Assembly: GCA_963663765.2 (NCBI GenBank)
Contig: CAXXUA010000013.1
Coordinates: 32,001-96,000, forward strand
Length of the DNA: 64,000 bases
Direction: 5' to 3'
Source: Candidatus Poribacteria bacterium
GTDB lineage: Bacteria; Poribacteria; WGA-4E; WGA-3G
In this document: piece by piece, positions 26,501 through 60,100 of the stretch
Numbering within the stretch: the stretch's first letter is position 1
Layout of the letters: every line of letters begins with the position of its first letter
The notes under the pieces: generated by a model
Told to the model about the DNA's origin: nothing
The model's input: the letters and a program-made list of their open reading frames with translations, nothing else
Database searches by the model: none
Translations under genes and position numbers: made by a program

Positions 26501-26669
26501 GTGCGGTTTCCTAACCGCACCTGATTTCAACAGAACAAGATAAATCCTGTTAATTTGGTATTACATCTCTTGTGGGAGGGGTTTGTAACCCCGATAATTT
26601 TGGTAGGAACGACCCGGGGAATGCCATAAGGCATTCATACCGTTGATTAACCGGTCGCTCCTACCAAAA

Positions 26670-27473
26670 TTATTGTACTGATGTCCGCTTTGACTGACCC
26701 GCAAGTTTTGCTGCTTGAAGCGCAAGCCGTTTTGCACTTTCAATCTGACCCATCATCTCAGCATTCGACCACGAGACAGAAGTAAGAAACCGTATTTCTT
26801 CAGATTTGTTCACGGTTTCAACCCCAAGAGCAACACGTAAACCACTATCAGCAATATGCTGCAAACCTGCGTTTACACCGTTACCGTCATATTCCATACT
26901 CAAGACGATTCTTCCTCTTGTAAATGCAGGATCAAATTCAGTACTTATACCAGCAAAAACACCGACAGGACGATCTTCATACGCAAAACGATGATTACCT
27001 ATACCAAAATGACCTGAAATCAAGTGGATTCGGGGGAGATTAAATGTCTTGCTAACACACAGGAAAGCTGACTGAGATTGGTAAGTTTCCCAACTGGTAT
27101 CTAATTTATCACCGAGATTCTCAATACCAATTGCAACATGTGGAATTGCCCCTGATTCTTTTAATAATTGTGCTTTTACATGTGCCAAAGCATAGTTAGT
27201 ATGCTTACTTTCACGTGGCATTAAATTGGATAATCCGAATTCAACGCGGTCATACATGCCAAAGTTGACACGAAATACAATTGAATCATGGCGTAAACCT
27301 GATTCATTCTTAAATGAGGTATACACACCTGCACCAAAAATCCCATGATCTAACACCTTTCCTGATGGTATATCTACAAAACCGGTATCAGTAAATATTT
27401 CAGAAGATACAATATCAGAAACCATGAAGGGCAAAAAAAGCAACAAGGTGACAAGCAATAGGTGTCGAAGCAT
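26670..27473 (-). CDS. YjbH-domain-like outer-membrane protein
   Basis: Signal peptide, TGFVDIPSG, beta-rich body, SMEYDG. Confidence 0.6.
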   Translation of the reverse strand: MLRHLLLVTLLLFLPFMVSDIVSSEIFTDTGFVDIPSGKVLDHGIFGAGVYTSFKNESGLRHDSIVFRVNFGMYDRVEFGLSNLMPRESKHTNYALAHVKAQLLKESGAIPHVAIGIENLGDKLDTSWETYQSQSAFLCVSKTFNLPRIHLISGHFGIGNHRFAYEDRPVGVFAGISTEFDPAFTRGRIVLSMEYDGNGVNAGLQHIADSGLRVALGVETVNKSEEIRFLTSVSWSNAEMMGQIESAKRLALQAAKLAGQSKRTSVQ

Positions 27474-27478
27474 TGCGA

Positions 27479-28159
27479 TTATTCCAAGTAGTGAATACCG
27501 TTTGAAGTTCCAACAAACACTTTGTCTGCAAGCTTAACAAATATACCATTCTCAACGACACCAGGAATATTGTTCAATTGCTGCTCAACTAACTCTGGTC
27601 TCGGTATACCATCAAAGTGACAATCCAATATATAATTACCGTTAACAGTGATCAATGGATTGACAATACCCCCTCGTATATCTGATTCCACACAAATTTT
27701 ATTGACTACACGTTGCGTTGCTTCCCAGCCAAACTTAACAATTTCCACTGGGAGCGCAAAAGAAGTACCAACTATACGTGAAACCTTACTTTCATCAACA
27801 ACAATCAGAATTCGTTCCGATGCATTAGCAATGATCTTTTCTCGAACTAAAGCAGCACCCCCACCTTTAATTAGATTTAAGTGTGGGTCCACTTCATCTG
27901 CTCCGTCAATTGTCAAATCTATCGATGAATATACTGAAAGCGATGACAAAGGGATACCTTGTTCTACTGCGATTTTCTCCGTACCATCCGAGGTAGGAAT
28001 ACCAATTATATTCACCCCGTTTTTCACCATCTGTCCAATCTTTAACAACGCATAGTAGACCGTGGAGCCTGTCCCCAATCCTAATATCATGCCATCTTCT
28101 ATCTCTTCAGTGGCTTTTTCTGCTGCTATTTTTTTCAAGTGTTCTCTGTTCATGCCCAA
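27479..28159 (-). CDS. rpiA: Ribose-5-phosphate isomerase A
   Basis: [27 protein letters not shown]. Confidence 0.95.
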
Positions 28160-29367
28160 CCTTGACTTTCGCCACCAATACGTTCCTTACTGATCTTCTC
28201 ATAATAACCGCTCTTTCGATATGCAGCCAACGGATGTGGATCACGACCCATCTCCAAACGAACCTCTTCCAATAGCGGATTCACATCGGTTTCATAAGCA
28301 CGTTGGATGATGCTTTCTGCTTCTACCAAGTCTTCTGCTTCCTGTGCTTCTGATAACGCTTCCCGATCAACTAACAGTGCCTTCGCATAAGCTTTCTGTA
28401 GATTACATACAGACTGTATACTCGCTTCAACCTTCGGTTTCAAATTATGACTCTGGTCTATCATATAGGCTATGTCTGTTTCCGTTTCTGGATCAAGCTC
28501 AGCTGCAACAAGTTCTGTATAAATTAGGAAGAGTTCCTGTGGATTGATAGAACCTACCGTCAAGTCATCATCTGCATACTTGCGGCAGTTGAAATGGAAA
28601 CCACCAAGTTTGCTTTCATCAATCAAGTATGCAACGATAAACTCAATATTTGTGCCTTGCGGATGGTGTCCAAGGTCAACAAGTACCTGTGCTTTTGCTC
28701 CAAGTTTCGTTGCCATTAAATAAGCAGTACCCCAATCAGCCAAATCCGTGTGGTAAAATGCTGGTTCAAAGAACTTATACTCAATCAACATGCGTGAGTC
28801 TGCTGGAAGTACATCGTAGACCTCACTCAATGCTTCTGTCATCCACTGTTTGCGTTGCCGAAAGTTGGCTTGACCGGGAAAGTTTGTCCCATCAGCAAAC
28901 CACAAACTTAGCAAATCTGAACCCGTTTTCTTCATTATATCAACACATTCCAACATGTGATCTATAGCAAGTCTCCGCACCTCTGCCCTTGGATTGCACA
29001 CACTACCAAGTTTATAGACCTGATCCTGAAATACGTTAGGATTAATCGCACCAATTCCGATGCCAACATCTGCAGCATACTGCTTCAACGCACCCCAATC
29101 GTCTGTCTTGTCCCAAGGAATGTGTAGCGCTACAGTCGGCGCAACACCAGTAAAACGGTGCACAGTCGCAGCATCCTCTAACCGTTCCGCTGCATTTCTC
29201 GCCGCACCTGCTTGTTCAAAAACACCAAAACGTGTACCAGAATTACCATAACCCCAAGATGGTGTCTCAATATGTTGTTGCTTCAGGTGAGTCTTTACTT
29301 CATCCGCCTGAATTCCCTGTTTTTCTAAGGTTTCTGCTAACAAATTATACGCAGGATTATTACTCAT
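28150..29367 (-). CDS. rhaI: L-rhamnose isomerase (RhaI/actinobacterial type)
   Basis: [47 protein letters not shown]. Confidence 0.88.
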
Positions 29368-29747
29368 GTATCTCCTCTCAATCGCTCATGAATTTCTGTG
29401 AATTATAACATAGTAACGATCTATTAGTAAAGTGTTTTTCAGATAATGTCTGTGTAAAGTTCTTAAGCATGGTGTTGTCTGATTCACAGTTGTAACGGAT
29501 TACGCGGATAGAATCTTTGACTAAAGTGATATACTACTCAATAAACATCATATAAGCAATACGATCTATGGTAGATGAATTATCCGCGTTCTCTGTGTAA
29601 TCCGCGTAATCCGCGATTCTGTCTGTGAAAAACGTACACATCCCACTTGATTTTTAATTTGCGTTATTTCTGTTAACTGTGATATAATATATTTATGATA
29701 ATATTTTGAATTCTATTGCTACGAAATTCTTCTATTTGAAATATAAT

Positions 29748-29776
29748 TTGACTTGATTACGTATTTAAGTTAGAAT
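29748..29776 (+). promoter_or_regulatory. Sigma70-type promoter upstream of the cohesin gene
   Basis: TTGACT-N17-TAGAAT. Confidence 0.6.
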
Positions 29777-29959
29777 AAATTTATCCCATAAGTGTATAAA
29801 CACGTTTGAGCGATTCACCTGTGTCGTATTTTCGGTGATACTTAGGCGCGCATGATTCCCGATGGTTTGCGGTGATTTCTTCTCTCAAACGACTATTAAA
29901 ACCTGTACCGAAAGGTAGAGAAAACAATATATTGTAAATGAATTAGTAAGGAGTGTTTT

Positions 29960-32716
29960 ATGAAAAATCAGCTTTTTAAGAGGAAAGTTTTATGTTCCTT
30001 TATGGCTGTTGTAATGTTATTTGGTTTGACAGCATTGAGTTACGGTGCAGCTAACGTTTCAGTTGATCCTGCTACGGTTGAATCTCCTGCTGTCGGCGAA
30101 CAGTTAACAGTGAATATCAATATTGCAGATGGTGAAGGTGTCGGGGGTTTCGAAGCTCAAATTAATTATGACAATACTGCTCTAAAATATGTTTCCGCAG
30201 CAAAGGGAGACTATATTCCCGGCGACCCAGCCGCTGGAACTTTCTTTACACTAATACGACCAGGTGATTCACATGTTGTCATTGCAGGAACATCCATTCA
30301 AGTAGGAACTGGAGAAGGGGATGGCACACTTGCTACAGTGACATTTGAAGTCGTTGAGGTAAAAGCATCTGCTATTACACTTTCGAAAGTTTCACTCGCT
30401 GATGCTGCAGGTCAACAATTAGATGTCACAACTGCAGATGGTGCTGTGACTGTTCCTGCACCTGACCCTGTTTATGGTGTTATGTTAGAAGGTGTAGGTG
30501 AGTTGAAAACAGAAACATCTGATCCAGGTGAAGGTGTTACCTATACGCTCAAAGTCACAAACGCTGGCGATACTGATGATGTGATAGATTTAGCTGCATC
30601 AAATGCTGATGCTACTTTAAGTGAAACCTCTCTATCACTGGAATCAGGTGCTTCAGCAGAAGTAACATTAACTATTCCCGCTACAGCACTTGCTACACCA
30701 GGGGATTATGAAATCAAAGTTACCGCGACTTCACAAGGTGATAGCACAAAAACTGCTGAGGTATCAACAACTACAACTATATCAGAACCCGTTGAACCCG
30801 AACCTGACCCTGTTTATGGAGTCATGTTAGCAGGGGTAGGTGATTTGACAGCAGAAGTATCTGATACAAGTGAAGGTGTTACCTATACGATCAATGTCAC
30901 AAACGCTGGCGATACAGATGATGTGATAGATTTAGCTGCATCAAATGCTGATGCTACTTTAAGTGAGACCTCTGTATCACTGGAATCAGGTGCTTTAGTA
31001 GAAGTAACATTAACTATTCCCGCTACAGCACTTGCTACACCAGGAGATCATGAAGTCAAAGTTACTGCGACTTCACAAGGCGATAATACAAAAACTGCTG
31101 AAGTCACTACAACTACAACTGTGAGCACTGAACCCGTTGCCCCCGAACCACAAGTGTTCAGTATTACTCTTACCAACCTAACTACCGGCGATCCAGGTGT
31201 TGGTGGACAAATCTTCTCACCGCCAATCTTCGCAGCACATCCTGCTGGTGTCAAAATCTATGAAGTCGGTAAAAAAGCTGAACCTTACATGGTTGCACTC
31301 GCTGAAGGTGGAGATGTCACAGGACTTGCCGCACTTGCAACCGTTGCCGGCGCAAACAGTGTTATCGCAGACGGAATGGTACATCCAGGTGCATCTGTTA
31401 CAGTCATGGTTTCTGCTGATGCAATAAATTCAGCTCTCTCTCTCACAACAATGTTAGTATCTACAAACGATGCATTTATCGGTGTTGCAGACTTACCACT
31501 CTACGATGAAGCTGGTATGCCAATCACAACAACACTTGATCTAAGATCTTATGATGCAGGTAGTGAACAGAATACGGAACGTGGAACAGATATTCCAGGA
31601 CCCGTTGGTCTGTCTGCAGAAGAAGACCCTGAAGGTACAAATGCTCGTGTTCCCACTGAAGGTGGCGTTATTACAAATCATCCCGGTATCATGGGTGTCG
31701 GTGATGTCGCTGACTCCTTTGCTTGGACAGAACCAACAGCAATGCTGACCATCGCTCCTTATGTGCCAGAACCACCAGTAATACCACCACCACCCCTACC
31801 CACTTATGATGTTACCCTTGAACCCGGTTTGAACATGATCTCTGTACCGTTGATGCCAGCAGAACCCTATTCAGCAAAAACACTTTCTGAAATGGTCGGT
31901 TCTACTGTTGTTATTAGACTCAACAGTGAAACACAAAGGTTTGAAGGTTATGTCGCAAACGAAGAAAGCCACGGTTTCTATATTGAAGGTGGAAAAGGAT
32001 ATATCGTTAATACTCCCGTTGGTGGAACGGTAACTTTCAGTGGTACTGCTTGGTCTACTGAACCCGCAGATGATGATGGGGAAGCTGCAGCACCAAGTAT
32101 CACAACAAATGGTGCATGGGCGTTTATCGTCGCAAGCGACATACAAAAAGCAGTAGACGGTTCTACATACACCATGGTCGCTAAAAACCTCCGTACTGGG
32201 GTTGTTACATCACAGCAAGTTGTTAACGAAAATGGGCATGTTAATGCTGTCTGGGCTGACCTAACTCGAAAGAGTGTTGTTCAAGCCGGTGATAAAGTTG
32301 AAATCGCACTTGTTGATGAAAACGATACAATTGTCTCTGGACCATTCCAGCGCACCGTACAAACCTCAGATATTCACAACGCATATCTAAGCATAAACAT
32401 GCGTGTTGGCGATGTCCGTCCGAAAGAGACTATGCTCGGACAAAACTTCCCAAATCCGTTCAACCCTGAAACTTGGATTCCTTATCAGTTACATCAAGAT
32501 GCTAACGTTAAGATTTCCATTTTTGATATATCAGGTAATACAGTCAGAACGCTGAACCTCGGTCAAAAGACTACTGGTTCATACATGACCAATTCAACTG
32601 CAGCCTATTGGGATGGCAAAAATGAAACGGGTGAACACGTTGCAAGCGGTGTATATTTCTATGCACTACAAGCATCTAATTTCACTGCAACCCGTCGCAT
32701 GGTCATTCTCAAGTAG
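29960..32716 (+). CDS. Secreted cohesin + 2 NEW3/Ig-like repeats + Spondin_N + FlgD-Ig/T9SS-like CTD protein
   Basis: Cohesin: VGEQLTVNINI..INYDNTALKYV..GDGTLATVTFEV. Spondin_N: GQIFSPPIFAAH..ALAEGGD..MLVSTNDAF..YDAGSEQN. CTD: LGQNFPNPFNPETWIPY..WDGKN..GVYFY. Confidence 0.8.
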   Translation: MKNQLFKRKVLCSFMAVVMLFGLTALSYGAANVSVDPATVESPAVGEQLTVNINIADGEGVGGFEAQINYDNTALKYVSAAKGDYIPGDPAAGTFFTLIRPGDSHVVIAGTSIQVGTGEGDGTLATVTFEVVEVKASAITLSKVSLADAAGQQLDVTTADGAVTVPAPDPVYGVMLEGVGELKTETSDPGEGVTYTLKVTNAGDTDDVIDLAASNADATLSETSLSLESGASAEVTLTIPATALATPGDYEIKVTATSQGDSTKTAEVSTTTTISEPVEPEPDPVYGVMLAGVGDLTAEVSDTSEGVTYTINVTNAGDTDDVIDLAASNADATLSETSVSLESGALVEVTLTIPATALATPGDHEVKVTATSQGDNTKTAEVTTTTTVSTEPVAPEPQVFSITLTNLTTGDPGVGGQIFSPPIFAAHPAGVKIYEVGKKAEPYMVALAEGGDVTGLAALATVAGANSVIADGMVHPGASVTVMVSADAINSALSLTTMLVSTNDAFIGVADLPLYDEAGMPITTTLDLRSYDAGSEQNTERGTDIPGPVGLSAEEDPEGTNARVPTEGGVITNHPGIMGVGDVADSFAWTEPTAMLTIAPYVPEPPVIPPPPLPTYDVTLEPGLNMISVPLMPAEPYSAKTLSEMVGSTVVIRLNSETQRFEGYVANEESHGFYIEGGKGYIVNTPVGGTVTFSGTAWSTEPADDDGEAAAPSITTNGAWAFIVASDIQKAVDGSTYTMVAKNLRTGVVTSQQVVNENGHVNAVWADLTRKSVVQAGDKVEIALVDENDTIVSGPFQRTVQTSDIHNAYLSINMRVGDVRPKETMLGQNFPNPFNPETWIPYQLHQDANVKISIFDISGNTVRTLNLGQKTTGSYMTNSTAAYWDGKNETGEHVASGVYFYALQASNFTATRRMVILK

Positions 32717-32740
32717 AATACATTACCATTTTACGCAATA

Positions 32741-32812
32741 AAAAGACACCCCGACTGCCGGTTTTTCGACCGCGAATCAACAATGATTAGCGTCGGCGGT
32801 GGGGTGTCTTTT
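32741..32812. terminator. Intergenic stem-loop with U-tracts on both strands
   Basis: 12-bp stem aaaagacacccc / ggggtgtctttt. Confidence 0.65.
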
Positions 32813-32837
32813 CGCGTATACGGTAAGGAGGTAAAAT

Positions 32838-35800
32838 TTGATTAATCTCAGTAGAATATCCACTCTTTCAATTATACTACTACTCATCTTCGTTGTCAGC
32901 AACAATGTTTTCGCCTATTCTTTCAATCCACCCGATGAAAAGACCGGAGCACCAAATCAAAGTGACTGTACCGACTGTCACCTTGGAAATGTCCTAAACA
33001 GCGCTGGCGGTTCATTCGTATTGACAGTACCTACAGTCTATGTTCCCGGTGAAGAGTATAGTATTGTCGTAGATTTAATGCGGACAGGCCAAAGTCGTTG
33101 GGGTTTTCAGATGACCGCACTAAATGGTAATAATGCAAGGGCAGGTACCTTTACTACCGTTGATGCAAATACACAATTGTCAGTAGCGAACAGCAAGCAA
33201 TATATTGAGCAGACAACAGCTGGAACTGCTCAAGGAACACGAAACAGAAACCAATGGTCGTTCAAATGGACTGCACCGTCTACTGATGTCGGACCAATTA
33301 CGTTCTATTCCACAGGAAATGCTGCAAATAACAATAGTGCTTCTTCGGGAGATTATATCTATACGACATCCGCCACTGCAAATGCTGCTGCTTACGGTGT
33401 TGCAATAACCGGTGTAGGGGAAATAACCAAAAGCATATCCGATGCCAGTTCGGGAGTGAATTACACATTACGGGTGACAAACAACGGAAATATAACTGAT
33501 ACTTTCAATTTGGAAACTTCAGGTGATGTCACGGGAACACTAAGCCAAACCTCGGTCCAACTCAACGCAGGAGCTTCCGCTAACATAACTTTATCACTGC
33601 CCGGATCCGCATTAGCAACTGCAGATAATTACGGAGTAAAGGTGAAAGCAACTTCACGGGGGGATAACTCAAAGACCTCTGAAATTACAACGACGACTAC
33701 AATCCTTCCTGTCTATGATGTTGCATTAACAGGTGTCGGTAGTTTACAGAAAACGACCAATGCAGAAACCGGCGCAAGTTATACTCTCCGAATTACCAAT
33801 AATGGAAATACTGAAGACACAATACGATTAACGACTTCAGGGGATGTCAACGCAACAATCAGTTCCAGTTCTGTGACTCTCAAGCAAAATACATCCTCTA
33901 ACGTCACCCTAAGAGTTTCTGGTGATGCACTTGCAAAAGCAGGTGATTACAAAGTAAAGGTAACTGCAACATCTCAAGGTGATGATACAATAACAGATGA
34001 AATCACAACAACTACAACCATTTCTAAAGTTTATGGTTTCACATTTGAGGGTGTAGGTGAGTTAACAACCGAAACATCGGATGCAAGTGAAGGTGTAAGT
34101 TTTACACTTAAAATCACGAATACTGGGAACACAGATGATGTTATTACTTTAGCAAAAACAGGCACAAAAGCCACCTTGAGCCAAAATGAAGTATCAATCG
34201 CCTATGGTGAATCAACACAAGTGACATTGACTATTTCTGCTGATGATTTAGCAAAAGCAGGTGATTACGAAGTCAAGCTAACTGCAACTTCTAAAGGTGA
34301 CAATACAATCACTCATGAAGTCACAACTAGTACTAATATTCTACCTGTTTACAGTGTTAAGTTAGATTCAAAAGGACCGTCCGCAAACTCAACGCAGGAC
34401 AGTGTCGCAGGTGTCACCTACAACCTTACTGTTACAAACACTGGTAACACAGAGGATACGATTATTCTCGGGTCATCAGCTGAGATCAGTATAGGCGGAG
34501 CAGTACTCGGTGCGTTCAAAAGAACAGAAGAACAAGCAATACCTACCACACAGTTGGAGATTACTCTCGCAGCAGGAACATCCACAGATGTGTTGTTCAT
34601 TGCTTCAGGTGACCTGCTAACAAGAACAGGGGAGTATCCAATCACTGTTACTGCAACTTCAAAAGGGGATAACACAAAATCCGCTGAAGTCACTACGACT
34701 ACAACTATCCTACCAGTTTACAGCGTCACGTTGATATCAAAGAGTCCAAATACAGGTTCAACGCAGGACAGTGTCGCAGGTGTCACCTATAACCTTACTG
34801 TTACAAACACAGGAAACACTGAGGATACGATTATTCTCGGGTCATCAGCTGAGATCGGTATAGGTGGAGCAGTACTCGGTGTTTTCAAAAGAACAGAAGA
34901 ACAAGCAATACCTACCACACAGTTGGAGATTACTCTCGCAGCAGGAACATCCACAGATGTGTTGTTCATTGCTTCAGGTGACCTGCTAACAAGAACAGGG
35001 GAGTATCCAATCACTGTTACTGCAACTTCAAAAGGGGATAACACAAAATCCGCTGAAGTCACTACGACTACAACTATCCTACCAGTTTACAGCGTCACGT
35101 TGATATCAAAGAGTCCAAATACAGGTTCAACGCAGGACAGTGTCGCAGGTGTCACCTATAACCTTACTGTTACAAACACAGGAAACACTGAGGATACGAT
35201 TATTCTCGGGTCATCAGCTGAGATCGGTATAGGCGGAGCAGTACTCGGTGCGTTCAAAAGAACAGAAGAACAAGAAATACCTACCGCACAGTTGGAGATT
35301 ACTCTCGCAGCAGGAACATCCACTGATGTGTTGTTCATTGCTTCAGGTGACCTGCTAACAAGATCAGGGGAGTATCCAATCACTGTTACTGCAACTTCAA
35401 AAGGGGATAACACAAAATCCGCTGAAGTCACAACGACTACTACTATCCTACCTGTCTACAACGTCACGTTGAAAACTAATGGTCCAAATATAGGTTCAAC
35501 ACAGGACAGTGTATCAGGTGTCACCTATAACCTTACTGTTACAAATACTGGTAACACAGAGGATACGATTATTCTCGGGTCATCAGCTGAGATCGGTATA
35601 GGCGGAGCAGTACTCGGTGCTTTCAAAAGAACAGAAGAACAAGAAATACCTACCGCACAGTTGGAGATAACACTCGCAGCAGGAGCATCCGTTGATGTGT
35701 TGTTCATAGCTACAGGTGACCTGCTAACAAGATCAGGGGAGTATCCAATCACAGTTACCGCATCTTCAAAAGGGGATAACACAAAATCCACTGAAGTCAC

Positions 35801-38800
35801 AACGACTACAACTATCCTACCAGTTTACAGCGTCACGTTGATATCAAAGAGTCCAACTACAGGTTCAACGCAGGACAGTGTCACAGGTGTCACCTATAAC
35901 CTTACTGTTACAAATACTGGTAACACAGAGGATACGATTATTCTCGGGTCATCAGCTGAGATCGGTATAGGCGGAGCAGTACTCGGTGCTTTCAAAAGAA
36001 CAGAAGAACAAGAAATACCTACCGCACAGTTGGAGATAACACTCGCAGCAGGAGCATCCACAGATGTGTTGTTCATAGCTTCAGGTGACCTGCTAACAAG
36101 ATCAGGTAAGTATCCAATCACAGTTACTGCAACTTCAAAAGGGGATAACACAAAATCCGCTGAAGTCACAACGACTACTACTATCCTACCAGTTTACAGC
36201 GTCACGTTGATATCAAAGAGTCCAACTACAGGTTCAACGAAAGACAGTGTGACAGGTGTCACCTATAACCTTACTGTTACAAACACAGGAAACACTGAGG
36301 ATACGATTATTCTCGGGTCATCAGCTGAGATCGGTATAGGGGGAGCAGTACTCGGTGCTTTCAAAAGAACAGAAGAACAAGAAATACCTACCGCACAGTT
36401 GGAGATAACTCTCGCAGCAGGCGCATCCACTGATGTGTTGTTCATTGCTTCAGGTGACCTGCTAACAAGATCAGGGGAGTATCCAATCACAGTTACCGCG
36501 ACTTCAAAAGGGGATACAACAAAATCCGATGAAGTCACAACGACTACTATTATCCTACCTGTCTATGGTTTTACGTTGGAAGGGGTAGGTGAGTTATCAA
36601 CCGAAACAGCGGATGCAACTGAAGATGTCAGTTATACGTTCAAAATCACTAACAATGGAAACACAGAAGATGTATTTACTTTAGCAACATCAGGTACAAA
36701 AGCGATCTTGAGCCAAAATGAAATATCAATCGCCTATGGTGAATCCGCAGAAGTGACATTGACTATTTCTGCTGATGATTTAGCAAGAGCAGGTAATTTC
36801 GAAGTCAAGATAACTGCAACATCTAAAAGTGACAATACTATCACTCATGAAGTCACAACAACTACAACCGTCCTACCTGTTTACGGTGTCACGTTGAAAT
36901 CTGAAACTACAACTACAGCTTCAACGCAAGACAGTGTGGCAGGTGTCACCTATAACCTTACTGTTACAAACACAGGAAACACAGAAGATACGATTATTCT
37001 CGGGTCATCAGCTGAGGTCGGTATAGGGGGAGCAGTACTCGGTGCTTTCAAAAGAACAGAAGAACAAGAAATACCTACCGCACAGTTGGAGATAACTCTC
37101 GCAGCAGGCGCATCCACTGATGTGTTGTTTATTGCTTCAGGTGACCTGCTAACAAGAATAGGAGAGTATCCAATCACAGTTACCGCGACTTCAAAAGGGG
37201 ATAACACAAAATCCAATGAAGTCACAACGACTACTACTATCCTACCAGTCTACAGCGTCACGTTGATATCAAAGAGTCCAACTACAGGTTCAACGCAAGA
37301 CAGTGTGACAGGTGTCACCTATAACCTTACTGTTACAAACACAGGAAACACTGAGGATACGATTATTCTCGGGTCATCAGCTGAGGTCGGTATAGGGGGG
37401 GCAGTACTCGGTGCTTTCAAAAGAACAGAAGAACAAGAAATACCTACTGCGCAGTTGGAGATAACACTCGCAGCAGGCGCATCTACTGATGTGTTGTTTA
37501 TTGCTTCAGGTGACCTGCTAACAAGTCTTGGTGAGTATCCAATCACTGTTACTGCAACCTCAAAAGGAGATAGCACAAAGACTGCTGAAGTCCAGACAAC
37601 GACTATAATTGTTGCCGTCCCTCCTGTCTACGGTGTGGAATTAACAGGAAAAGGTAAACTCACAAGTTCTACAGAAGATGCAGTGGAAGGTATTTCATAT
37701 ACACTCACAGTCACAAACACTGGTAACACGCATGATACGATTGTTCTCGGGTCATCAGCTGAAACAGGAAGTAAAGGGAGTATCCTTGGTACTTTCAAAC
37801 AAACTGACGATCAAGATACTACTTCAAGCCAGTTGGAGATTGAACTCGCTGAAGATGAATCCAAGGACGTGTTATTTACTATTGCTGGCGATTCATATAC
37901 AGAATCAGGTGAGTATGAAGTCAACGTTTCCGCAATATCAAAAACCGATAGCACAAAAACCGCAGAAGTCAGTACGACAACGACTATTCTCCCTGTCTTC
38001 AATGTCACATTAGTTGGTAAAGGAGATATTACAACTGAAACCACTGAAGTAAGCAATTGGATAAGATATGTATTTACAGTAAAAAATACTGGTAACACTT
38101 CTGGTACGGTGGATCTGGTTGCTCAAGCTGAAATCCCAGTTGAAATAAGAGTACATACTGTGACAAATTTAGAAGATGGTAAGGAATTAATTCTTGTGAT
38201 TGATTATATCGCACCAAGTGTTGATACAGCAAGTAATCAAACTACTACATTTCTTAGACCCGGTGGTACAGCAGAAATTTCAATTTATGTTTTTGCTGAA
38301 AGTCTTCAAAAAGCAGGTGAGTATGATGTTAAAGTCATTGCAACACATCAAGGAGATAAGACAAAATCTGCTGAAGTCACAACCAAAACGACTATTACTC
38401 CCACCTACGGTGTAAAGTTACAGGGTAAAGACGAACTGATAGGTGAAACAATGGATCCCTTAAAAGGTGTAAGTTATGTGTTGACCGTTACAAACGAAGG
38501 TAATGCTGAAGATACTTTCTTACTCGGTTCGTCAGCAGAAGTTGGTATTGAGGGAACCGTTATCGGATTATTCACTGCATCAGATGATCAAGAAATACCC
38601 ACAAGCCAGATCGAGGTAATGCTTGCACCCGGTGCCTCTAAGGAAGTTACATTCACTGCTAAAGGTGACTTTTTCACAAAACCAGGTGAAAATGAAATCG
38701 TTGTAACAGGCACTTCAAAATCTGACGATACGAAAACTGCTGAAATAACGACTACAACAACGATTACTCCTGTCCCTTGGGATCTCAACGCTGATGGTAC

Positions 38801-38966
38801 AGTAAACATCTTGGATCTGGTACTCGTTTCCAATCAGTTTGGTGAATCCGGTGATGGTCTTTCTGGTGATGTGAACATGGATGGCACTGTGAATATCCTT
38901 GACCTTGTTCAGGTAGCGTCATATTTCGGCAAATCACATGTTGAAATTGTTCAAGAGAATCAGTAA
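32838..38966 (+). CDS. Giant secreted protein: Reeler-like (choice-of-anchor V, CxxCH) head, about 15 NEW3/Ig-like repeats, C-terminal dockerin
   Basis: TGAPNQSDCTDCH, WGFQMTA, WSFKWTAP..GPITFY..GNAAN; YNLTVTNTGN.EDT repeats; WDLNADGTVNILDLV / DVNMDGTVNILDLV. Confidence 0.85.
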   Translation: MINLSRISTLSIILLLIFVVSNNVFAYSFNPPDEKTGAPNQSDCTDCHLGNVLNSAGGSFVLTVPTVYVPGEEYSIVVDLMRTGQSRWGFQMTALNGNNARAGTFTTVDANTQLSVANSKQYIEQTTAGTAQGTRNRNQWSFKWTAPSTDVGPITFYSTGNAANNNSASSGDYIYTTSATANAAAYGVAITGVGEITKSISDASSGVNYTLRVTNNGNITDTFNLETSGDVTGTLSQTSVQLNAGASANITLSLPGSALATADNYGVKVKATSRGDNSKTSEITTTTTILPVYDVALTGVGSLQKTTNAETGASYTLRITNNGNTEDTIRLTTSGDVNATISSSSVTLKQNTSSNVTLRVSGDALAKAGDYKVKVTATSQGDDTITDEITTTTTISKVYGFTFEGVGELTTETSDASEGVSFTLKITNTGNTDDVITLAKTGTKATLSQNEVSIAYGESTQVTLTISADDLAKAGDYEVKLTATSKGDNTITHEVTTSTNILPVYSVKLDSKGPSANSTQDSVAGVTYNLTVTNTGNTEDTIILGSSAEISIGGAVLGAFKRTEEQAIPTTQLEITLAAGTSTDVLFIASGDLLTRTGEYPITVTATSKGDNTKSAEVTTTTTILPVYSVTLISKSPNTGSTQDSVAGVTYNLTVTNTGNTEDTIILGSSAEIGIGGAVLGVFKRTEEQAIPTTQLEITLAAGTSTDVLFIASGDLLTRTGEYPITVTATSKGDNTKSAEVTTTTTILPVYSVTLISKSPNTGSTQDSVAGVTYNLTVTNTGNTEDTIILGSSAEIGIGGAVLGAFKRTEEQEIPTAQLEITLAAGTSTDVLFIASGDLLTRSGEYPITVTATSKGDNTKSAEVTTTTTILPVYNVTLKTNGPNIGSTQDSVSGVTYNLTVTNTGNTEDTIILGSSAEIGIGGAVLGAFKRTEEQEIPTAQLEITLAAGASVDVLFIATGDLLTRSGEYPITVTASSKGDNTKSTEVTTTTTILPVYSVTLISKSPTTGSTQDSVTGVTYNLTVTNTGNTEDTIILGSSAEIGIGGAVLGAFKRTEEQEIPTAQLEITLAAGASTDVLFIASGDLLTRSGKYPITVTATSKGDNTKSAEVTTTTTILPVYSVTLISKSPTTGSTKDSVTGVTYNLTVTNTGNTEDTIILGSSAEIGIGGAVLGAFKRTEEQEIPTAQLEITLAAGASTDVLFIASGDLLTRSGEYPITVTATSKGDTTKSDEVTTTTIILPVYGFTLEGVGELSTETADATEDVSYTFKITNNGNTEDVFTLATSGTKAILSQNEISIAYGESAEVTLTISADDLARAGNFEVKITATSKSDNTITHEVTTTTTVLPVYGVTLKSETTTTASTQDSVAGVTYNLTVTNTGNTEDTIILGSSAEVGIGGAVLGAFKRTEEQEIPTAQLEITLAAGASTDVLFIASGDLLTRIGEYPITVTATSKGDNTKSNEVTTTTTILPVYSVTLISKSPTTGSTQDSVTGVTYNLTVTNTGNTEDTIILGSSAEVGIGGAVLGAFKRTEEQEIPTAQLEITLAAGASTDVLFIASGDLLTSLGEYPITVTATSKGDSTKTAEVQTTTIIVAVPPVYGVELTGKGKLTSSTEDAVEGISYTLTVTNTGNTHDTIVLGSSAETGSKGSILGTFKQTDDQDTTSSQLEIELAEDESKDVLFTIAGDSYTESGEYEVNVSAISKTDSTKTAEVSTTTTILPVFNVTLVGKGDITTETTEVSNWIRYVFTVKNTGNTSGTVDLVAQAEIPVEIRVHTVTNLEDGKELILVIDYIAPSVDTASNQTTTFLRPGGTAEISIYVFAESLQKAGEYDVKVIATHQGDKTKSAEVTTKTTITPTYGVKLQGKDELIGETMDPLKGVSYVLTVTNEGNAEDTFLLGSSAEVGIEGTVIGLFTASDDQEIPTSQIEVMLAPGASKEVTFTAKGDFFTKPGENEIVVTGTSKSDDTKTAEITTTTTITPVPWDLNADGTVNILDLVLVSNQFGESGDGLSGDVNMDGTVNILDLVQVASYFGKSHVEIVQENQ
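34340..37610 (+). repeat. Intragenic 369-bp (123-aa) tandem repeats: 6 copies, a different Ig unit, then 2 copies
   Basis: The antisense ORF track repeats with a 369-bp period (34418 to 36263; 36950, 37319). Confidence 0.95.
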
Positions 38967-41852: not shown

Positions 41853-42057
41853 TATAGTGGATTTTAGAATTATTTTTACACTTTCAAGTGTAGGAGGGAA
41901 CTCCGATTCCCGACTATCAAGACGTTCAGTCGCGATTCGGAGATCGAAATCAAGTAATCAACGGTATGAATACCTTATGGTATTCCCCGGGTATGAATGC
42001 CTATTGGCATTCCCCGCCTACAGAAAAAGTGTAAACTTAATTGTATATTTCACTATA
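41853..42057. mobile_element. TATAGTG...CACTATA MITE with a GTAG REP pair interrupted by hairpin cassettes
   Basis: Inverted ends; the REPs match those at 16488-16563. Confidence 0.65.
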
Positions 42058-43831: not shown

Positions 43832-43875
43832 GGTAGGAGCGACCTCCCGGTCGCGACCGGGAGGTCGCTCCTACC
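43832..43875. repeat. Second perfect 44-bp REP palindrome within a ~125-bp repeat shared with 18021-18146
   Basis: Direct sequence comparison. Confidence 0.95.
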
Positions 43876-43918: not shown

Positions 43919-44617
43919 CAATACCTTCGCCATTTTTGAGTGCTTCAGTTGAATGAGTATATAGTGTTGATCTACCATTGCTCTGTGATATTGTTAGGAT
44001 TATATAAATAAAAATAACTTCAGGTTTTCGTTGAAGTATTTTTTTATCATAGCAGGGTTATTTAGTTTTAAGAGTTTTCTGTTATTGAGATTTACTGAAA
44101 GTTAATACCCAGGTTTGGTTTCCTAACCGAACTTTCTGCATCAGTTTTAGATTATTGAAAAATGAATATCGCTCTTTAGTCCCGACAAATGCCATACGCG
44201 CATTTGGCGTTGATTTGGTAGGGACGATATGTTTATAGAAAACGAATACCCTCCCCAGTTCTTTAGTCCCGACAAATGCCATACGCGCATTTGGCGTTGA
44301 TTTGGTAGGGACGATATGTTTATTTTTCTATGTCGTTCCTACGGAACTCAAGAGGGATAGATAACATGTTTATATAAACATATCGTCCCTACGGGACTAA
44401 AGACATGGACAAGATGGCAACACATAAAATTAACGACATAGCAAAATATTATCAATAATATTGAAAACTGAATAACCCTGTTATCACATCCTCTAATTTG
44501 ACAATAGAAATGACTATATCAGCAATCTGACAGAATAATTTATAGGCACAATCTGGCAGAATGTGCTACCACTGCCCGCACAATCTGGAAGAATGTCTAT
44601 TATTGGCGAAGGTATTG
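43919..44617. mobile_element. CAATACC-ended MITE, copy 2
   Basis: Same TIR and body as 18525-19181. Confidence 0.8.
44053..44480. mobile_element. ISAs1-like MITE, copy 2, in inverted orientation
   Basis: Begins with the reverse complement of the 19161 end; ends aaaactgaataaccctg. Confidence 0.85.
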
Positions 44618-47787: not shown

Positions 47788-47978
47788 ACAGCAATCAATA
47801 CTGATAAATAATAGACATTATAACGGTTTAATTGTACAGGTTTTTGGTACCGAATAAATCTAAATTTTGTAGGTTAGATAGAGAGAAGTATAACCAAAAA
47901 TCAACAGTATAAATTCCGTTTTGACATTCGCCGGGTCGTTCCTACCAGATCTCCGCTGCTAATGAGACATACTATATG

Positions 47979-49571: not shown

Positions 49572-49594
49572 CCTCTTTAGGAAAGAAGATTATA

Positions 49595-50788: not shown

Positions 50789-50798
50789 GGAGAAACTT

Positions 50799-51521: not shown

Positions 51522-51630
51522 CAGCAGATAGTAACTTATGACTTATGCAAGCACTTTGAGACAGTTTAAAGTCTTGTGTTGTACTGAGATGGTCGCAGTT
51601 TACCTTTTTTGCTAAGGAGGTATTACCAAA

Positions 51631-53652: not shown

Positions 53653-53705
53653 CGCGTGCGAAGACAATAATCAAATTCCTTGACATCTTCATAAGAAGGA
53701 AAAAC

Positions 53706-54428: not shown

Positions 54429-54496
54429 ATGAGAATCATTCTTATTCGACGACTATTGTAACCCTATCCAGAATCAATTTTAATATGTAAAAACTT

Positions 54497-55303: not shown

Positions 55304-55387
55304 CAGATATTGTTAGTACATTCATTGATGCAAGACTGCCAATTTGACCTATTATCCAACCAAACTTGTTATTATTAGGTATAAAAG

Positions 55388-55403
55388 TTGGCATAGATAT
55401 TGC
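55388..55403 (+). promoter_or_regulatory. Sigma54 -24/-12 motif, duplicate of the one upstream of dnaK
   Basis: TTGGCATAGATATTGC. Confidence 0.55.
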
Positions 55404-55419
55404 GTTATATATTTAACAT

Positions 55420-55877
55420 GATTTTCGCACCACTTGAAGGATTTCGGCACGTTGAAGTAACCGACACATGCACAAGTATTGATTTTGATCATATCTGCCG
55501 AGATTTAGTTGATGTTTATTTCCTTAATGCTGATAAGATCATTCTTGTTTGCGATAATCTCAATACTCACAAGTCGACTTCGTTGTATAAAGCTTTCCAA
55601 CCAGATCAAGCCAGGCGAATTGCCGAAAAACTTGAGTTCCACTATACACCTAAACATGGAAGTTGGTTGAATATGGCTGAGATTGAGTTATCAGTGTTAT
55701 CCAGGGGTTGTCTTTCAAGGCGTATCCCCGGCCAAGAAACTTTAAAGCAGGAGATCCGTTCATGGCAACCCCGTAGAAATGAATAACGAACAAGTATGAA
55801 TTGGCGATTTAGAACAGATGATGCGCGAATAAAACTCAAACGACTATACCCATCTATTAGCGATTGATTGAACACTA
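55420..55877 (+). pseudogene. IS630 transposase 3' remnant with internal stop and right end
   Basis: CDNLNTH, KHGSWLNMAEIE, then after the stop NWRFRTDDARIKLKRLYP. Confidence 0.85.
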
Positions 55878-55987
55878 GTGCATATCTCATAAATATATTT
55901 TTTTGATTTAACGGGCGGGGAAACCCCGCCCCTACGATGTTATCCAAATAGGACAATCCAATAATTGGATTTATGAGATACGCTCTA
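55876..55987. mobile_element. MITE with tatctcataaat / atttatgagata ends and a gggcggggaaaccccgcccctac REP
   Basis: Inverted ends; solo ends also at about 1907-1922 and 43719-43737. Confidence 0.65.
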
Positions 55988-55995
55988 CATACAAT

Positions 55996-56548
55996 GACTT
56001 GTGCCAGTTAACAGATTGTTTTGTTGGTTTTCACATATATTCGCATTAGTGCTATAATCATATCGTCCCTACGGGACTAAGTGGTTTTCTTGCTAAGTAT
56101 TTGTTATATGTTCCCATTGACGATCTTCTACTTAAACAGATGACGACTGGGTTCTTCAGCATTGAAATTTTATTTTATGCTAAAATTAATTGCCGAAAGA
56201 ACCACTAAGTGGTTTTCTTGCTAAGTATTTATTATATGCAGGACTTACGCAGTTTTCATGATCCAATCAAGAATTAAGACGAAAACGATGTAATTTTCAG
56301 CATTTTTTGGTTTCCGGCGCGCTTACAAAGCACGCCTACCGTTGGGTGCATAAGTTCTGATATGTTTCCATTGACGATCTACTACTTAAACATAAGACTA
56401 CGGGGTTCTTCAGCATTGGACTTTTATTTCATGCAAAAATTAATTGCCGAAAGAACCACTAAAGAGTATGTCAATATAAGTGAAATCACAATAATACACT
56501 TTTCTTATGTGTAGAAATATGTTGCAATCAGTTCTTTAGTACAACTCG
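55996..56548. mobile_element. Nested MITE stack (host MITE > two tandem GTGGTT..AACCAC MITEs > CAGGACTTACGCA MITE)
   Basis: 56081-56205 and 56209-56459 are separated and flanked by TAA; 56239-56359 is flanked by ATATG. Confidence 0.85.
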
Positions 56549-56577
56549 TTACATACAAGAACAATGTATTATTGATA

Positions 56578-56899
56578 CTATTGTTTGGACAATTTTATTC
56601 ATAAGTTGATAAACCTTATCAGGATACAATTGGCATAACGGAAGTCCTCTTTGCTCCAGCGGAACAATATGTTTATAGTAGCATAATGAACCGACATGTC
56701 CGTTCCAGCGGAGCGGTATGTGATTTCTAACATAGCACTTCGCTCAAGGGCAAGAAGACTTATATACAATTTTCTATAACATAACACTCTGCTGGAGTGC
56801 GTCGTTTTACTTGAGGTTGCCCTTATAAGTAAATTTGTAGAAAATAGACTTCTGGTTGATAACTCTACAAGAAACTGATAGAAAATGTCCAAACTATAG
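56578..56899. mobile_element. GTTTGGAC-ended MITE, inverted homolog of 42486-42855
   Basis: TIR gtttggaca / tgtccaaac; ctccagcgga REPs. Confidence 0.85.
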
Positions 56900-56905
56900 T
56901 AAATA

Positions 56906-57088
56906 CAGGACTTACGCACTCAACGGTAGGCGGGGAATGCCTAAAGAAGCATGCGCGTGTGGCATGCTCCATGATTCATACCGTTGATTTGGTGCTTTGT
57001 AAGTGCGCTGGAAACCGGAAAAATGCTGAAAATTACACCCATTTTCGTCATAATTCTTCATTAAAACATGAAAACTGCGTAAGTCCTG
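56906..57088. mobile_element. CAGGACTTACGCA MITE with a REP interrupted by a 60-nt cassette
   Basis: Perfect 13-bp inverted repeat; homologous to 56239-56359 and 60362-60484. Confidence 0.85.
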
Positions 57089-57181
57089 ATATATTAAAGT
57101 GAGATCGCGATATAAGTAATTTGGGAGAATAGTTGCAGTTAGGAAACCGCATCCGCCGAATACCACACGGGGAATGCCTAA

Positions 57182-60100
57182 ATGGCATTGGTCCCGTCTA
57201 AAAATATGAGGACAATTATGAAATTCAAATGTTTGTTTGTTATGATAATTGCGCTCTGGACTTTTTTGCTTCCTTGTTTTGCCCAGAAAGATACACCGGA
57301 AAAATATATAGTAAAACTGGTCTATTTTGTTGCAAAAGACCGAAAACCTCAAAAGGAAATAGATACTAAGATCAAAAAAATACTGAAGCGTGCGCAGAAG
57401 TTTTACGGCGACGAGATGGAAAAGTATAGGTATAATAGAAAAACCTTTAGACTGGAAACTGATACAAACGGAGATATAGTGGTGCACCATGTAACTGGAA
57501 AAAAAGATAGCACACAATATCAGAAAAAACCTTATGAAGTGTTTAATGAATGTGCAAGTAGGATTCAAACGCCAAACACGATCTTATTTGTTGTGCTAGA
57601 CCATGGTAGTCGTAGAGTAGCTGGTTATTATGGCGTGGCTTATGCAGGAGAGCGTATACTGATCCCAGTGTCGGGAGGCTGGGAGGTCGCTGCGCATGAG
57701 CTCGGACACGCTTTCGGATTACCACACGCTCTCCGTGATGGTAGACCTAGAATGTCCTACGGAAAATGTGCAGCAGCATGGTTGGATCTCAATCCCTATT
57801 TCAATGGCGGTAGAATTCGTGAGGTTGAAAGAAGGGTAAAGGTTGAGATGCTTCCATCTTCTATAGCATATCCACCAGATAATATGCATCTCTTTTTTAA
57901 GATAACGGATCCTGATGGACTCTATCTTGTCCGATTTCGACACGCTAATCGACTTATGCATAGTTGCCAGTCTATATCCGGAGATCAGGCAATCGTCCAA
58001 TTCAATACCTCAAAAGTAATGGGTAAAGGAGTCAATGTTGCAACCGTTGATCTCAATGGAAATGCAAAGAAGTTAGGTTTGTTTTCATTTGACAATATTA
58101 AGCCGAATTTGATAGTAGACATTTCTGGTGAGGTCATAGATGCGCCAGATCAACACTATAACAACATTCGGGGACCATGGCTCTGGATGATCGCGCCAAC
58201 GAAACAAAATCAAGGTGGAAAGGATTCAACTCATATTGATTCTTTAGTCGTTGTCAGTGCAGATACGGTTAACGAAGGAACTATATCTAAATACGGGGCA
58301 AATGAAGGAGACACCGTAGGAGAGTATAAGTGGACACTCGGTGAAATTCCTGCAAATGGAAATATCAACACGATGCTCACAAATATAGGCATGACAGAAA
58401 ACACCGATCTCGACGATTTTACGTCTTATGCACTCACCACACTTGTATCCAAAACAGATCAACCTAATGTGAAAATGAAAGTTGGGAGTGACGATTCTAT
58501 CAAAGTTTGGCTTAACGGTGAAGTCGTTTTTAGTAACGCAACAAACCGAGTCTATAGGAAAAACGATGATGTTTTCCCAGTTAACCTGAAAAAAGGTGAT
58601 AATCTCCTGCTTGTGAAGGTTAGTGAGCGACAAGGCCCCTGGGGCATGCATGTTGGCGTGGCTGCTGAGATATTCCCTGTCTATAGAGTTCCAACGACTA
58701 CCTCTGTTTATGGTCCTGCCTTAGCAGCGGTATGCAATTTGACACCTGAAATGAGCAATCCAAGCGCAGATATTGAGTATATCCTTACAGTGATAAACAC
58801 TGGTAATACAAAGGACACAATAAAATTGGCAATATCAGGCAATACCACCTATCTACGTGGTAAGAAGGAACTTGGTGACAATGATGTATCGGTTGATACG
58901 ACATTGAGTCCAGTATCTGTATCACTTGCTCCCGGTGCTTCTTCAAAAGTGACATTGGTGGTTCCGGGGTTTGTGCGTGCTACTGCTGGCGATTATGAGA
59001 TCAAAGTCACAGCCACTTCAGAAAGCGACATCACAAAAACCGCTCAAGTCACAACCACCGCCACCATTATACCTGTTCACGGTGTCGCTTTAGCAGGTGT
59101 GGATGACTTGACTGCTAAGACCATTGATGTGAATGCAGATGTTAAGTACGCCCTTACAGTGACAAACACTGGCAATACAAAAGACACAATAAAATTGGCA
59201 ACATCAGGTGAGGTAGCCTCAACACTAAATCAGAAATCTGTATCACTTGTTCCCGGTGCTTCTTCAAAAGTGATATTGATGATTCCAGGCACAGCTCTCG
59301 TTACTGCTGGCAATTATGCGGTTAATGTCATAGCCACTTCAGAAAGTGATGATACGAAGACAGATCAAATCAGAACCATCACCAATGTTCACTCAGATAC
59401 TGTCCCTGATGCAGAAGATATTGTGGACCCTCCAGTGATGCCGATTTATAAAGTCTATAATAGCATTCGTGGTCCGTGGCTTTGGATGATCGCTCCAACT
59501 GTACAAAATCAAGGGGGAAAGAATTCTACGCATATTGATTCCTTAGCCGTTGTCAGTGGTAATACAGTTAATGAAAAAACAGTATCTAAGTATGGGGCTA
59601 CTAAGGGGGACACCGTCGGCGATTATACGTGGACGCTCGGTGAAATTCCTGCAAATGGAAATATCAACACGATGCTCGTGAATATAGGTATGACAGAAAA
59701 CACCGATCTCGACGATTTTACGTCTTATGCGCTTACTACACTTGTGTCCAAAACGGATCAACCTAATGTGAAAATGAGAGTTGGAAGTGACGATTCTATA
59801 AAAGTTTGGCTTAACGGTGAAGTCGTTTGGAGTCACTCAACAAACCGAGTCTATCGGAAAAACAATGATGTTTTCACAGTTAACTTGAATAAAGGTGATA
59901 ATCTCCTGATTGTGAAGGTTAGTGAGCGGCAAGGTCCCTGGGGCATGCATGTTAGAGTAAATGCTGAGGTATTCACTGTCTATAGAGTTCCAACAACTAC
60001 TCCTGTTTTTGGTGCTACTTTAGAAGGTGTGAGCAATTTAAAAACTGAGGCGACGGATGTAAGGACAGGTATCAAGTATATTTTTAAAGTCACAAATACC

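Follow-up and report, generated by a model that had tools for sequence, protein, structure and literature searches.

The repeats SDR4, SDR5 and SDR6 of Nostocaceae, which Elhai and colleagues reportedly presented in 2008 as hairpins of 21-27 nt nested in other repeats, are very small repeats proposed to be mobile and are the nearest precedent of this size for the element described here. We know of no enzyme for the SDRs, which to our knowledge are the only earlier case for mobile elements shorter than 40 nt and whose mechanism was never found. The mobile G+C clusters of yeast mitochondria are palindromic sequences of ~30-50 bp that occur singly or in tandem, prefer short target words and move by an unknown mechanism. 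The subject of this study is a hairpin cassette of 34-38 nt, ending in TTGATT, that occurs in a 64,000-nt stretch of a Candidatus Poribacteria genome (assembly GCA_963663765.2, contig CAXXUA010000013.1, positions 32,001 to 96,000 of the forward strand), referred to as the window. An initial annotation had described it as a discrete and very small cassette, and the present analysis agrees. It is apparently among the smallest mobile DNA elements seen in bacteria, and it very probably is, or was, an independently inserting element. As far as sampled, it is confined to the sponge-associated Candidatus Poribacteria.

The cassette shares features with several described systems. Compared with the SDRs, known to us through second-hand description, it belongs to another phylum, is longer and has an invariant 3' word; yeast G+C clusters differ in being organellar, GC-rich and unrelated in sequence. 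The accessible part of one source reports that SDR5 uses the palindrome HIP1 as insertion site (PMC5861425); there were no HIP1 sites in the window. Repetitive extragenic palindromes (REPs), their bacterial interspersed mosaic elements (BIMEs) and the REP-associated tyrosine transposases (RAYTs) form the system closest in build (PMC3733652, PMC3479197, PMC3116915). Like the cassette, REPs are imperfect palindromes of 20-40 nt, extragenic and present in high copy number, with a short conserved word next to the foot of the hairpin and an internal loop that is asymmetric. The portions available of the respective reports indicate that some REP families are inserted inside other palindromes (PMC3733652) and that the substrate bound by RAYT is a hairpin with a 5' tetranucleotide, cleavage being at a dinucleotide (PMC3479197). 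With seven sites in the 64-kb window, the cassette fits the general description of a REP as a short extragenic imperfect palindrome with many copies. However, it lacks the GTAG or CGTC tag at the hairpin foot, its invariant word being CGTTGATT, and it does not form the inverted doublets known as REPINs, its arrays being direct tandem and nested. Unlike REPs, it has clean filled and empty alleles in many targets. The cassette works in the manner of a REP and may have branched off from the REPs.

Elements of the IS200/IS605 family and palindrome-associated transposable elements (PATEs) also resemble the cassette. In the excerpted description of IS608 TnpA, the ends are single-strand hairpins and insertion takes place 3' of a short word without duplication (PMC5027513). 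These elements have two different subterminal hairpins, a target word of 4-5 nt outside the left end and a lagging-strand bias, whereas the cassette has one hairpin in a 36-nt unit, a 2-nt CG, no skew signal and TTGATT inside its 3' end. With respect to a fixed tetra- or pentanucleotide target, cassette insertions lack duplication and share only CG, with C preferred at -1 and -2. The analogy with the TTGAT target of ISDra2, drawn in the initial annotation, does not transfer, since according to the available part of the source the TTGAT 3' of which ISDra2 integrates belongs to the left flank, outside the element (PMC8612924), and the TTGATT of the cassette is inside, at the 3' end. Miniature transposable elements with inverted repeats (MITEs) such as Nezha, Correia and ERIC (PMC3184786) are likewise non-autonomous, lie between genes and show filled and empty sites when relatives are compared. 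They measure 70-300 bp and have terminal inverted repeats (TIRs) and direct-repeat target duplications, whereas the cassette has neither and ends in CG... and ...TTGATT(TGG); in the window it sits inside MITE TIRs. The literature search, which covered few subscription journals, found no report on such repeats in Poribacteria. The cassette probably adds a new form to the very small palindromic mobile repeats.

Relatives were collected by scanning 185,579 species genomes with the pattern CGGGGAATRCC, 3-33 nt, ATTCATACC; GTTGATT was not required. At least 97 loci matched. Among the 80 listed, 77 were metagenome-assembled genomes (MAGs) of Poribacteria and another, without Poribacteria in its title (locus L069), contains a true cassette; two matches in other taxa (L012 and L051) were discarded as chance matches lacking the hairpin, GTTGATT and a covariance-model match. 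A total of 1.49 Mb (1.38 Mb unique), with no overlap with the window, was fetched around cassette loci, each of them chosen for holding a pattern-matching unit. The catalogue of this sample comprises 158 TTGATT-ended units in 139 arrays, and a covariance model (R1), built from 100 distinct related units, produced 236 matches at E<=0.001, overlapping loci being counted repeatedly. Types outside the reach of the scan pattern accounted for 51 of 136 arrays in the loci, a density of ~37 arrays per Mb for these types. A perfect stem of at least 6 bp within 8 nt preceded 184 of 1587 TTGATT occurrences but only 51 of 1591, 18 of 696 and 21 of 918 occurrences of control hexamers (3.2%, 2.6% and 2.3%), an excess that is partly inflated because every locus was selected for one unit.

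The anatomy of the unit is constant: a 5' CG, a stem of 7-10 bp, a loop of 4-8 nt, the return stem, CG, TTGATT and then T or C, often followed by GG. The 100 distinct units align in 39 columns, with G2, A7 and the octamer CGTTGATT invariant. Pairing of the outer CG(G) with the inner (C)CG closes the hairpin foot across the 5' junction and leaves TTGATT as a single-stranded 3' tail. In type 1 the stem GAATGCC/GGCATTC is separated from the outer pairs CGG/CCG by an asymmetric internal loop (G opposite ATA). Type 2, referred to below as the second type, has a continuous stem, e.g., CGCCAAATGC...GCATTTGGCG. The foot word of the main type reads ATACC on the top strand (bottom strand, GGTAT), that of the second type GCG or TAGCG. 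Several stem variants keep the pairing (GAACGCC/GGCGTTC, GAAGCCC/GGGCTTC, GAATGAC/GTCATTC, TTCATGCC/GGCATGAA and others), and 106 of 127 type-1 stems are perfect. Compensatory change was extensive: 92.2% of the cells were paired and 7 of 10 pairs changed on both sides, in 64 cells, a level reached by 0 of 500 shuffles, with the model structure taken from the same sequences, which favours this result, and second-type rows out of register in the inner helix, which disfavours it. Structures slid along the alignment as controls were 27-51% paired.

All five groups of copies listed in the initial annotation, (a) to (e), were present when the window was re-read. A search of the window with the covariance model, with filters off, and a fuzzy match located the following copies:
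26615 to 26651, forward strand: cassette (d), type 1, composed of CG, hairpin GAATGCC/GGCATTC, ATACCG and TTGATT; 52.4 bits, E 4.9e-13.
41947 to 42016, reverse strand: array (c), with a hairpin-only unit at 42016-41990, a full unit at 41989-41953 and a doubled tail to 41947.
41953 to 41989, reverse strand: covariance-model match in array (c); 50.1 bits.
41990 to 42015, reverse strand: tail-less hairpin of array (c) as matched by the model; 30.1 bits.
44183 to 44218, forward strand: cassette (a1), second type, in the left TIR of a MITE; 38.2 bits.
44270 to 44305, forward strand: cassette (a2), second type, identical to (a1); 38.2 bits.
47896 to 47933, reverse strand: cassette (f), degenerate type 1, after GGTAGGAACGACC, found by fuzzy match; 23.7 bits, E 6e-5.
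56931 to 56992, forward strand: cassette (b), a 62-nt variant with an inner hairpin; 15.3 bits for its 3' part, 56960-56992.
57154 to 57189, forward strand: composite (e), truncated and nested; 16 bits for a partial match (57168-57197).

The window thus has seven cassette sites, five as first described, one truncated and one degenerate. Six units had E values from 5e-13 to 6e-5, and the rest of the window scored below 10 bits save for reverse-strand echoes of the cassette hairpins. The octamer CGTTGATT alone is weak evidence: it has six occurrences in the window where 2.66 would be expected, a count attained in 6 of 100 shuffles. Cassette (d) does lie inside a REP pair, as had been proposed, between REP arms at 26602-26614 and 26653-26665 that fold around it as DNA (-18 kcal/mol, z -5.4). 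Array (c) was also read correctly; it is inserted after CTGTAGG of a REP that is intact elsewhere. The possibility that the cassette is a piece of a known longer plasmid or phage element found no support, as the 70-nt array had no blastn match in two collections. Cassettes (a1) and (a2) are 36-nt units made of CG, the imperfect stem CAAATGC/GCATTTG and GCGTTGATTTGG. They split TAGTCCCG^TAGGGACG (^, insertion point) at the end of the MITE, the homologue of which is empty; but both lie within an 87-nt repeated segment with identical flanks, so that the two copies count as one event. Cassette (b) interrupts the right arm of ~120 nt (56906-57088) of an inverted-repeat element of ~850 bp. Its insertion and its empty allele held, but not the idea of a private nested event, since the 62-nt variant has 13 further copies in other MAGs, at the usual targets (a tandem-hairpin row from L017 left out). 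Composite (e), initially taken for a partial copy, is more precisely the truncated 5' part of a nested composite, in which a second-type 5' half (57154-57169) has a type-1 unit in its loop and is cut off after GGCATT; the same nesting is complete in L009, L043 and L050. Cassette (f), which was absent from the initial list, has a decayed hairpin and has lost its folding.

The empty alleles reported in the window are real, and several REP families have been entered:
56320 to 56344, reverse strand: empty allele for (b), left arm of the ~850-bp element, reading CAACGGTAGGCG^TGCTTTGTAAGCG.
19022 to 19037, reverse strand: empty allele for (a) in the homologous MITE, with a second empty end at 18937-18952.
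44384 to 44399, reverse strand: empty right TIR of the MITE (44255-44408) that carries (a1) and (a2) in its left TIR.
16484 to 16512, forward strand: empty allele for (c), an intact REP.
16538 to 16565, forward strand: empty copy of the REP GTAGGAGGGAACTCCGATTCCCGACTAC, which is also empty at 41890-41917.
18060 to 18103, forward strand: empty copy of a perfect 44-nt palindromic REP, which is also found at 43832-43875.

The arms of the ~850-bp element (56239-56359 and 56906-57088) are collinear except for 56933-56991, and the empty homologue of (a2) at ~19030 has flanks of 132 and 97 nt with identities of 95% and 91%. Two elements of the window, the ~850-bp element and the MITE, therefore each have one arm or TIR filled and the partner empty. 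In other MAGs the REP GTAGGAGGGAACTCCGATTCCCGACTAC is filled after CTCCG in nine copies, and the 44-nt palindromic REP is filled near its centre in L022 and L094.

Filled and empty pairs were identified by exact left-flank look-ups and by split-alignment searches; the latter gave 34 candidate pairs, some of them artefacts between cassette arrays, and only the following targets were relied on:
GGGAACTCCG^ATTCCC: inserts of 35, 36, 44, 71, 72 and 113 nt, those of 44, 71, 72 and 113 nt being composites.
GGTAGGCG^CGTTTTGTAAACGCGCC: 36-nt units.
GAGTTCCG^TAGGAACG and TAGTCCCG^TAGGGACG: MITE ends, the former with 36-nt units.
GGCACACTCCG^TGTGCC: a 105-nt composite.
CCATACG^CG, the loop of second-type cassettes: 141 nt inserted after CCATACG.
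GGCGAGG^TTTCCTAACCTCGCC: filled and empty pair.
CCCCCTGATAAGGGG^GATTTAGGGGG: filled and empty pair.
GGGTCTCT^GTGCC and GGGGTCCC^TGTGCC: filled and empty pairs.
GATCGCTCC^TAC: filled and empty pair.
Centre of the 44-nt palindromic REP: filled and empty pair.

The 35-36-nt unit, the 62-nt variant and composites of 71-113 nt interrupt about 11 unrelated targets. No duplication was present in any filled and empty pair, and the cassette lacks TIRs, both as initially noted. An orthologous, unique intergenic site, filled in one MAG and empty in another, provides the most telling pair: a 69-nt nested composite is present in L038, just upstream of a gene, and none is found in L008, with flanks of 257 and 269 nt that are 88% identical and run into the gene start. 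Within one chromosome (OX638351.1; L016, L030, L038 and L045), copies of one repeat are empty or have, at the same point, one unit or a two-hairpin unit.

In our reading of the filled and empty pairs, about seven of 11 target types supply the CG with which the hairpin foot begins; in the remaining types CG comes with the insert, at the cost of one host base. Insertion thus usually follows a host CG, in support of the position after CG noted initially. Before the CG, C was found at -1 in 36 and at -2 in 31 of 65 distinct flanks, and the base after TTGATT was T in 48 and C in 32 of 83 cases and never G, then often GG. The targets are foldable DNA. Virtual empty sites folded better, at -6.06 kcal/mol, than intergenic controls, at -3.59 (n=972) and -3.42 (n=275) kcal/mol (Mann-Whitney p 1e-16), and the junction fell in a hairpin loop at 60 of 139 sites, compared with 28% and 31% of controls. 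Orientation is also constrained: in the near-symmetric loop of the REP GGGAACTCCGATTCCC, nine copies are filled in one orientation, none or one in the other, and 25 are empty. The proposed proximity to GTAG is partial, since GTAG or CTAC is nearby in only 56 of 139 arrays, an enrichment over the 15% of control positions which indicates that REPs are favoured but not sole hosts. Confining the cassette to REPs was too narrow; it also occupies MITE ends, non-GTAG hairpin repeats, the loops and tails of other cassettes and unique intergenic DNA.

Most arrays (124 of 139) have only one unit ending in TTGATT; those with several units are direct tandems. Hairpin-only units end in ATACC, with the CG of the next unit directly after. 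Two-hairpin forms nearly always end in GTTGATTTCTTGATTTGG and recur as a unit across several genomes and targets, and full cassettes in succession read ...TTGATTTGG^GGGAAT.... The longest pure tandem array seen, in L043 (18109-18280), consists of five second-type cassettes head to tail with a 34-nt period, four with CAAATGC and one with TGAATGC. The tail behaves like a microsatellite, with five TTGATTT(C) repeats in L034 (2834-2930) and GATTCT runs in L017 (~9990-10330). A rule of one tail repeat per nested hairpin was refuted by L090, with one hairpin and two TTGATT, and by L034, with two hairpins and five. Inverted or palindromised forms are rare; in L067 (9886-9934) and L038 (439-483) the 3' half including TTGATT is mirrored at the 5' side (AATCAACGGTATGAATGC...GCATTCATACCGTTGATT), and these are perfect long palindromes inside a host hairpin.

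The reading that we tentatively prefer, and to which we give a little less than an even chance, is that the cassettes form one family of mobile DNA hairpins, very small, non-autonomous and built like REPs, that moves via a single strand. Copies are found without target duplication, mostly right after a CG that belongs to the target. The targets are foldable DNA: the loops or feet of REPs, the ends of MITEs, further hairpin repeats and, in resident cassettes, the loop or the ACC^G; such insertion builds the nested and tandem arrays. According to the model, a trans-acting enzyme would recognise the hairpin as single-stranded DNA, make its cuts at the foot on the 5' side and 3' of the tail, and join the piece to the exposed CG. 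By analogy, this enzyme could be a Y1 protein of the HUH class, most likely of the RAYT or IS200/IS605 TnpA kind, an attribution that we hold at nearly, but not quite, even strength. The comparison of sequences suggests a possible lead to the mechanism: the 3' flank of the main type, CATACCG, is one base from the CCTACCG of the resident REPs, so that the bottom strands read GGTAT plus hairpin and GGTAG plus hairpin, respectively.

Several observations weigh against this preferred reading. The junctions are fuzzy by 1-3 nt, which fits microhomology as well as a precise nuclease; the boundaries are uncertain to that degree because most comparisons are between paralogous repeat copies. Composites of host repeat and cassette amplify as wholes, as in seven near-identical copies in L025 and L026, so that many copies are not independent insertions and copy counts overstate events. 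With only one hairpin, the cassette lacks the distinct left and right ends of IS200/IS605. Elements of that family favour the lagging-strand template, and local GC skew, used as a proxy for replication strand in loci of 15-20 kb, showed no bias (55 arrays on the G-rich and 64 on the C-rich strand, of 119; five and 12, respectively, at |skew|>=0.06). The search for an enzyme, which the initial annotation had suggested should be a RAYT or TnpA flanked by the same hairpins, was negative. The open reading frames (ORFs) of the window included no Y1/HUH gene, and for the six that had no family assignment this held up to E 0.1; E. coli RayT matched nothing below E 0.48 (phmmer, 1300 ORFs from the sampled loci) or 0.54 (tblastn, 1.49 Mb); and the ten candidates compared with Pfam (eight taken from an HUH-Y motif screen, the remaining two from the RayT search) were ordinary enzymes and one TnpB. 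A RAYT gene was therefore not found in the window or in the 1.49 Mb around at least 97 loci, a sample that would mostly miss a single-copy gene. When the 1300 ORFs were clustered, the 19 of 23 recurrent families that were compared with Pfam were ordinary Poribacteria paralogs (GFO/IDH/MocA, Laminin_G_3, PhyH, sulfatase, etc.); the enzyme search as a whole added two TnpB. No tnpA was seen in the 1.49 Mb, and the two tnpB-only elements (L030 and L077) were rejected as masters since their end hairpins are of the GGTAG type, unlike the cassette.

These tnpB genes, without a nearby tnpA, are located at 3994-5106 (forward strand) in L030 and at 8749-9840 (reverse strand) in L077. The former matches OrfB_IS605 and the Cas12f1-like TNB in Pfam, and the latter is its tblastn homologue with 31% identity. 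Hairpins with GGTAG, as in the resident REPs, are found after the gene in L030 (CCCCTACC...GGTAGTGGG) and before it in L077 (GTGGTAGGAGC...CTCCTGCCAC), a hint of kinship between the GTAG REPs of Poribacteria and the ends of the IS605 family. The tnpB of L077 has a tail-less cassette ~165 nt upstream, on the opposite strand.

The same facts can be read in other ways. The cassette could be a module of mosaic, BIME-like REP clusters that spread by gene conversion, template switching, microhomology repair and amplification of whole composites. The 1-3-nt ambiguity of the junctions, the G/CG microhomology and the replaced single host bases agree with this, as do the amplified composites of L025/L026, the palindromised copies (L067), the microsatellite-like tails of L034 and L017 and the lack of an enzyme in the RayT searches, the motif screen and Pfam. 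Conversion between repeat copies, however, cannot bring a unit into a new sequence context, and a unit with identical ends is present in about 11 unrelated targets and at a unique orthologous site; together with the strong orientation preference in the near-symmetric loop, nine against none or one, this makes the mosaic explanation improbable. A site-specific serine or tyrosine recombinase, or an enzyme like those of IS110/IS1111, might instead be aimed at hairpin repeats with CG as crossover core, and the absorption of the target CG into the foot of the element would suit it. Some elements of the IS1111 group target REPs and attC hairpins. The available part of one report also lists REPs as insertion sequence targets in Pseudomonas, Neisseria and Sinorhizobium (PMC3733652). 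But a shared core should recur at both junctions, and in most filled sites CG is lacking at the right one, for which the crossover-core model was rejected; in addition, no such gene recurs near cassettes and 36 nt is very short for two recombinase-binding arms, leaving this alternative a slim chance.

Two further explanations start from the hairpin as a functional or transcribed structure. A primary host function, as a protein binding site, mRNA stabiliser, terminator or promoter piece, with spread as a secondary effect, would account for the conservation of the hairpin through covariation, for its extragenic position (two of 158 units are within ORFs) and for a mild co-orientation of the cassette top strand with genes (56 against 28 between tandem genes; 72 against 47 of 119 by the gene bias of the locus, p 0.027). 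We consider it quite unlikely as the primary role, since there is no U-run after the hairpin, nested insertion is left unexplained and decayed copies exist (47896-47933). Delivery of a promoter by TTGATT as a -35 box was rejected, TAnnnT at 16-18 nt not being in excess (six of 139 arrays against 94 of 1403 other TTGATT). The least probable alternative, with a very small chance, is an RNA route in which the transcribed hairpin would be reverse-transcribed in a retron- or group-II-like manner and then integrated. The modest gene co-orientation favours it, with GC skew null; but the stems do not have an RNA-type asymmetry (six G.T and five A.C single mismatches in 127 stems), no reverse transcriptase is among the recurrent protein families near cassettes and no Rfam family matched at gathering score in the window. 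The co-orientation was thus matched neither by an RNA-type mismatch pattern nor by promoter logic.

The DNA that hosts the cassettes has a G+C content of 41.6% in the window, and its genes include those for WD40 proteins, dockerin/cohesin proteins, ThuA, GFO/IDH/MocA enzymes, DnaK and FtsH. The intergenic DNA is rich in REP-like palindromes with GGTAGG...CCTACC, several of which are parts of MITE-like elements. The terminal inverted arms of the ~850-bp element (56239-57088), of ~120 nt, consist of four collinear inverted-repeat blocks with a REP (GGTAGGCGTGCTTTGTAAGCGC) in each arm; six further copies of the REP core are at 8742-9155, and a 106-amino acid ORF inside the element (56599-56919, reverse strand) had no Pfam match. 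Five 76-nt tandem units at 3074-3529, each with the REP half GGTAGGAGCGACCTCCCGGTCGCGA, form a REP-bearing minisatellite between two genes. A 144-bp MITE-like element (16460-16603), with 25-nt inverted ends that are 84% complementary and two different REPs inside, lies directly upstream of an IS630-like transposase gene (16711-17844; DDE_3, HTH_32). The window also contains a DDE_3 fragment at 55400-55786 and a DDE_Tnp_1_4 gene at 7268-8683. An ORF of 2042 amino acids (32838-38966) has about ten repeats of 369 nt (123 amino acids), with identity up to 100%, and a dockerin domain at its end; the genes at 29960-32716 and 57182-60328 have repeat modules in common with it. At 23400-25168, an AAA_21 ATPase gene overlaps an ORF of 218 amino acids with a weak DUF4276 match (E 0.008, below the cut-off), and this pair is possibly a defence module.

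The multiplication of REPs and other very short repeats has long been a puzzle. The cassette family offers an invariant 8-nt word, a covarying hairpin, dozens of filled and empty pairs and defined preferred targets, and several complete Poribacteria chromosomes among the scan matches (for example OX638351.1, OZ244889.1, OZ244563.1 and OY282386.1) allow a co-occurrence search for the responsible gene. REPs and MITE ends are themselves hosts to smaller parasites, which matters for repeats that are used as markers or read as regulatory hairpins. A stronger version, which we regard as rather unlikely, is that no smaller target-specific transposable units have so far been seen in bacteria: each would be a bare 36-nt single hairpin with a 6-nt tail, holding all the cis information for excision or copying and for placement after a CG exposed in the loop of another hairpin, and would be moved by an enzyme class not previously linked to repeats. 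This class would be a RAYT clade whose specificity has shifted from GTAG to GTAT, or else a non-HUH enzyme. If this were true, since cassettes also land in each other, Poribacteria would hold self-assembling nested hairpin arrays, and the cassette would be a tractable minimal substrate for single-strand DNA transposition.

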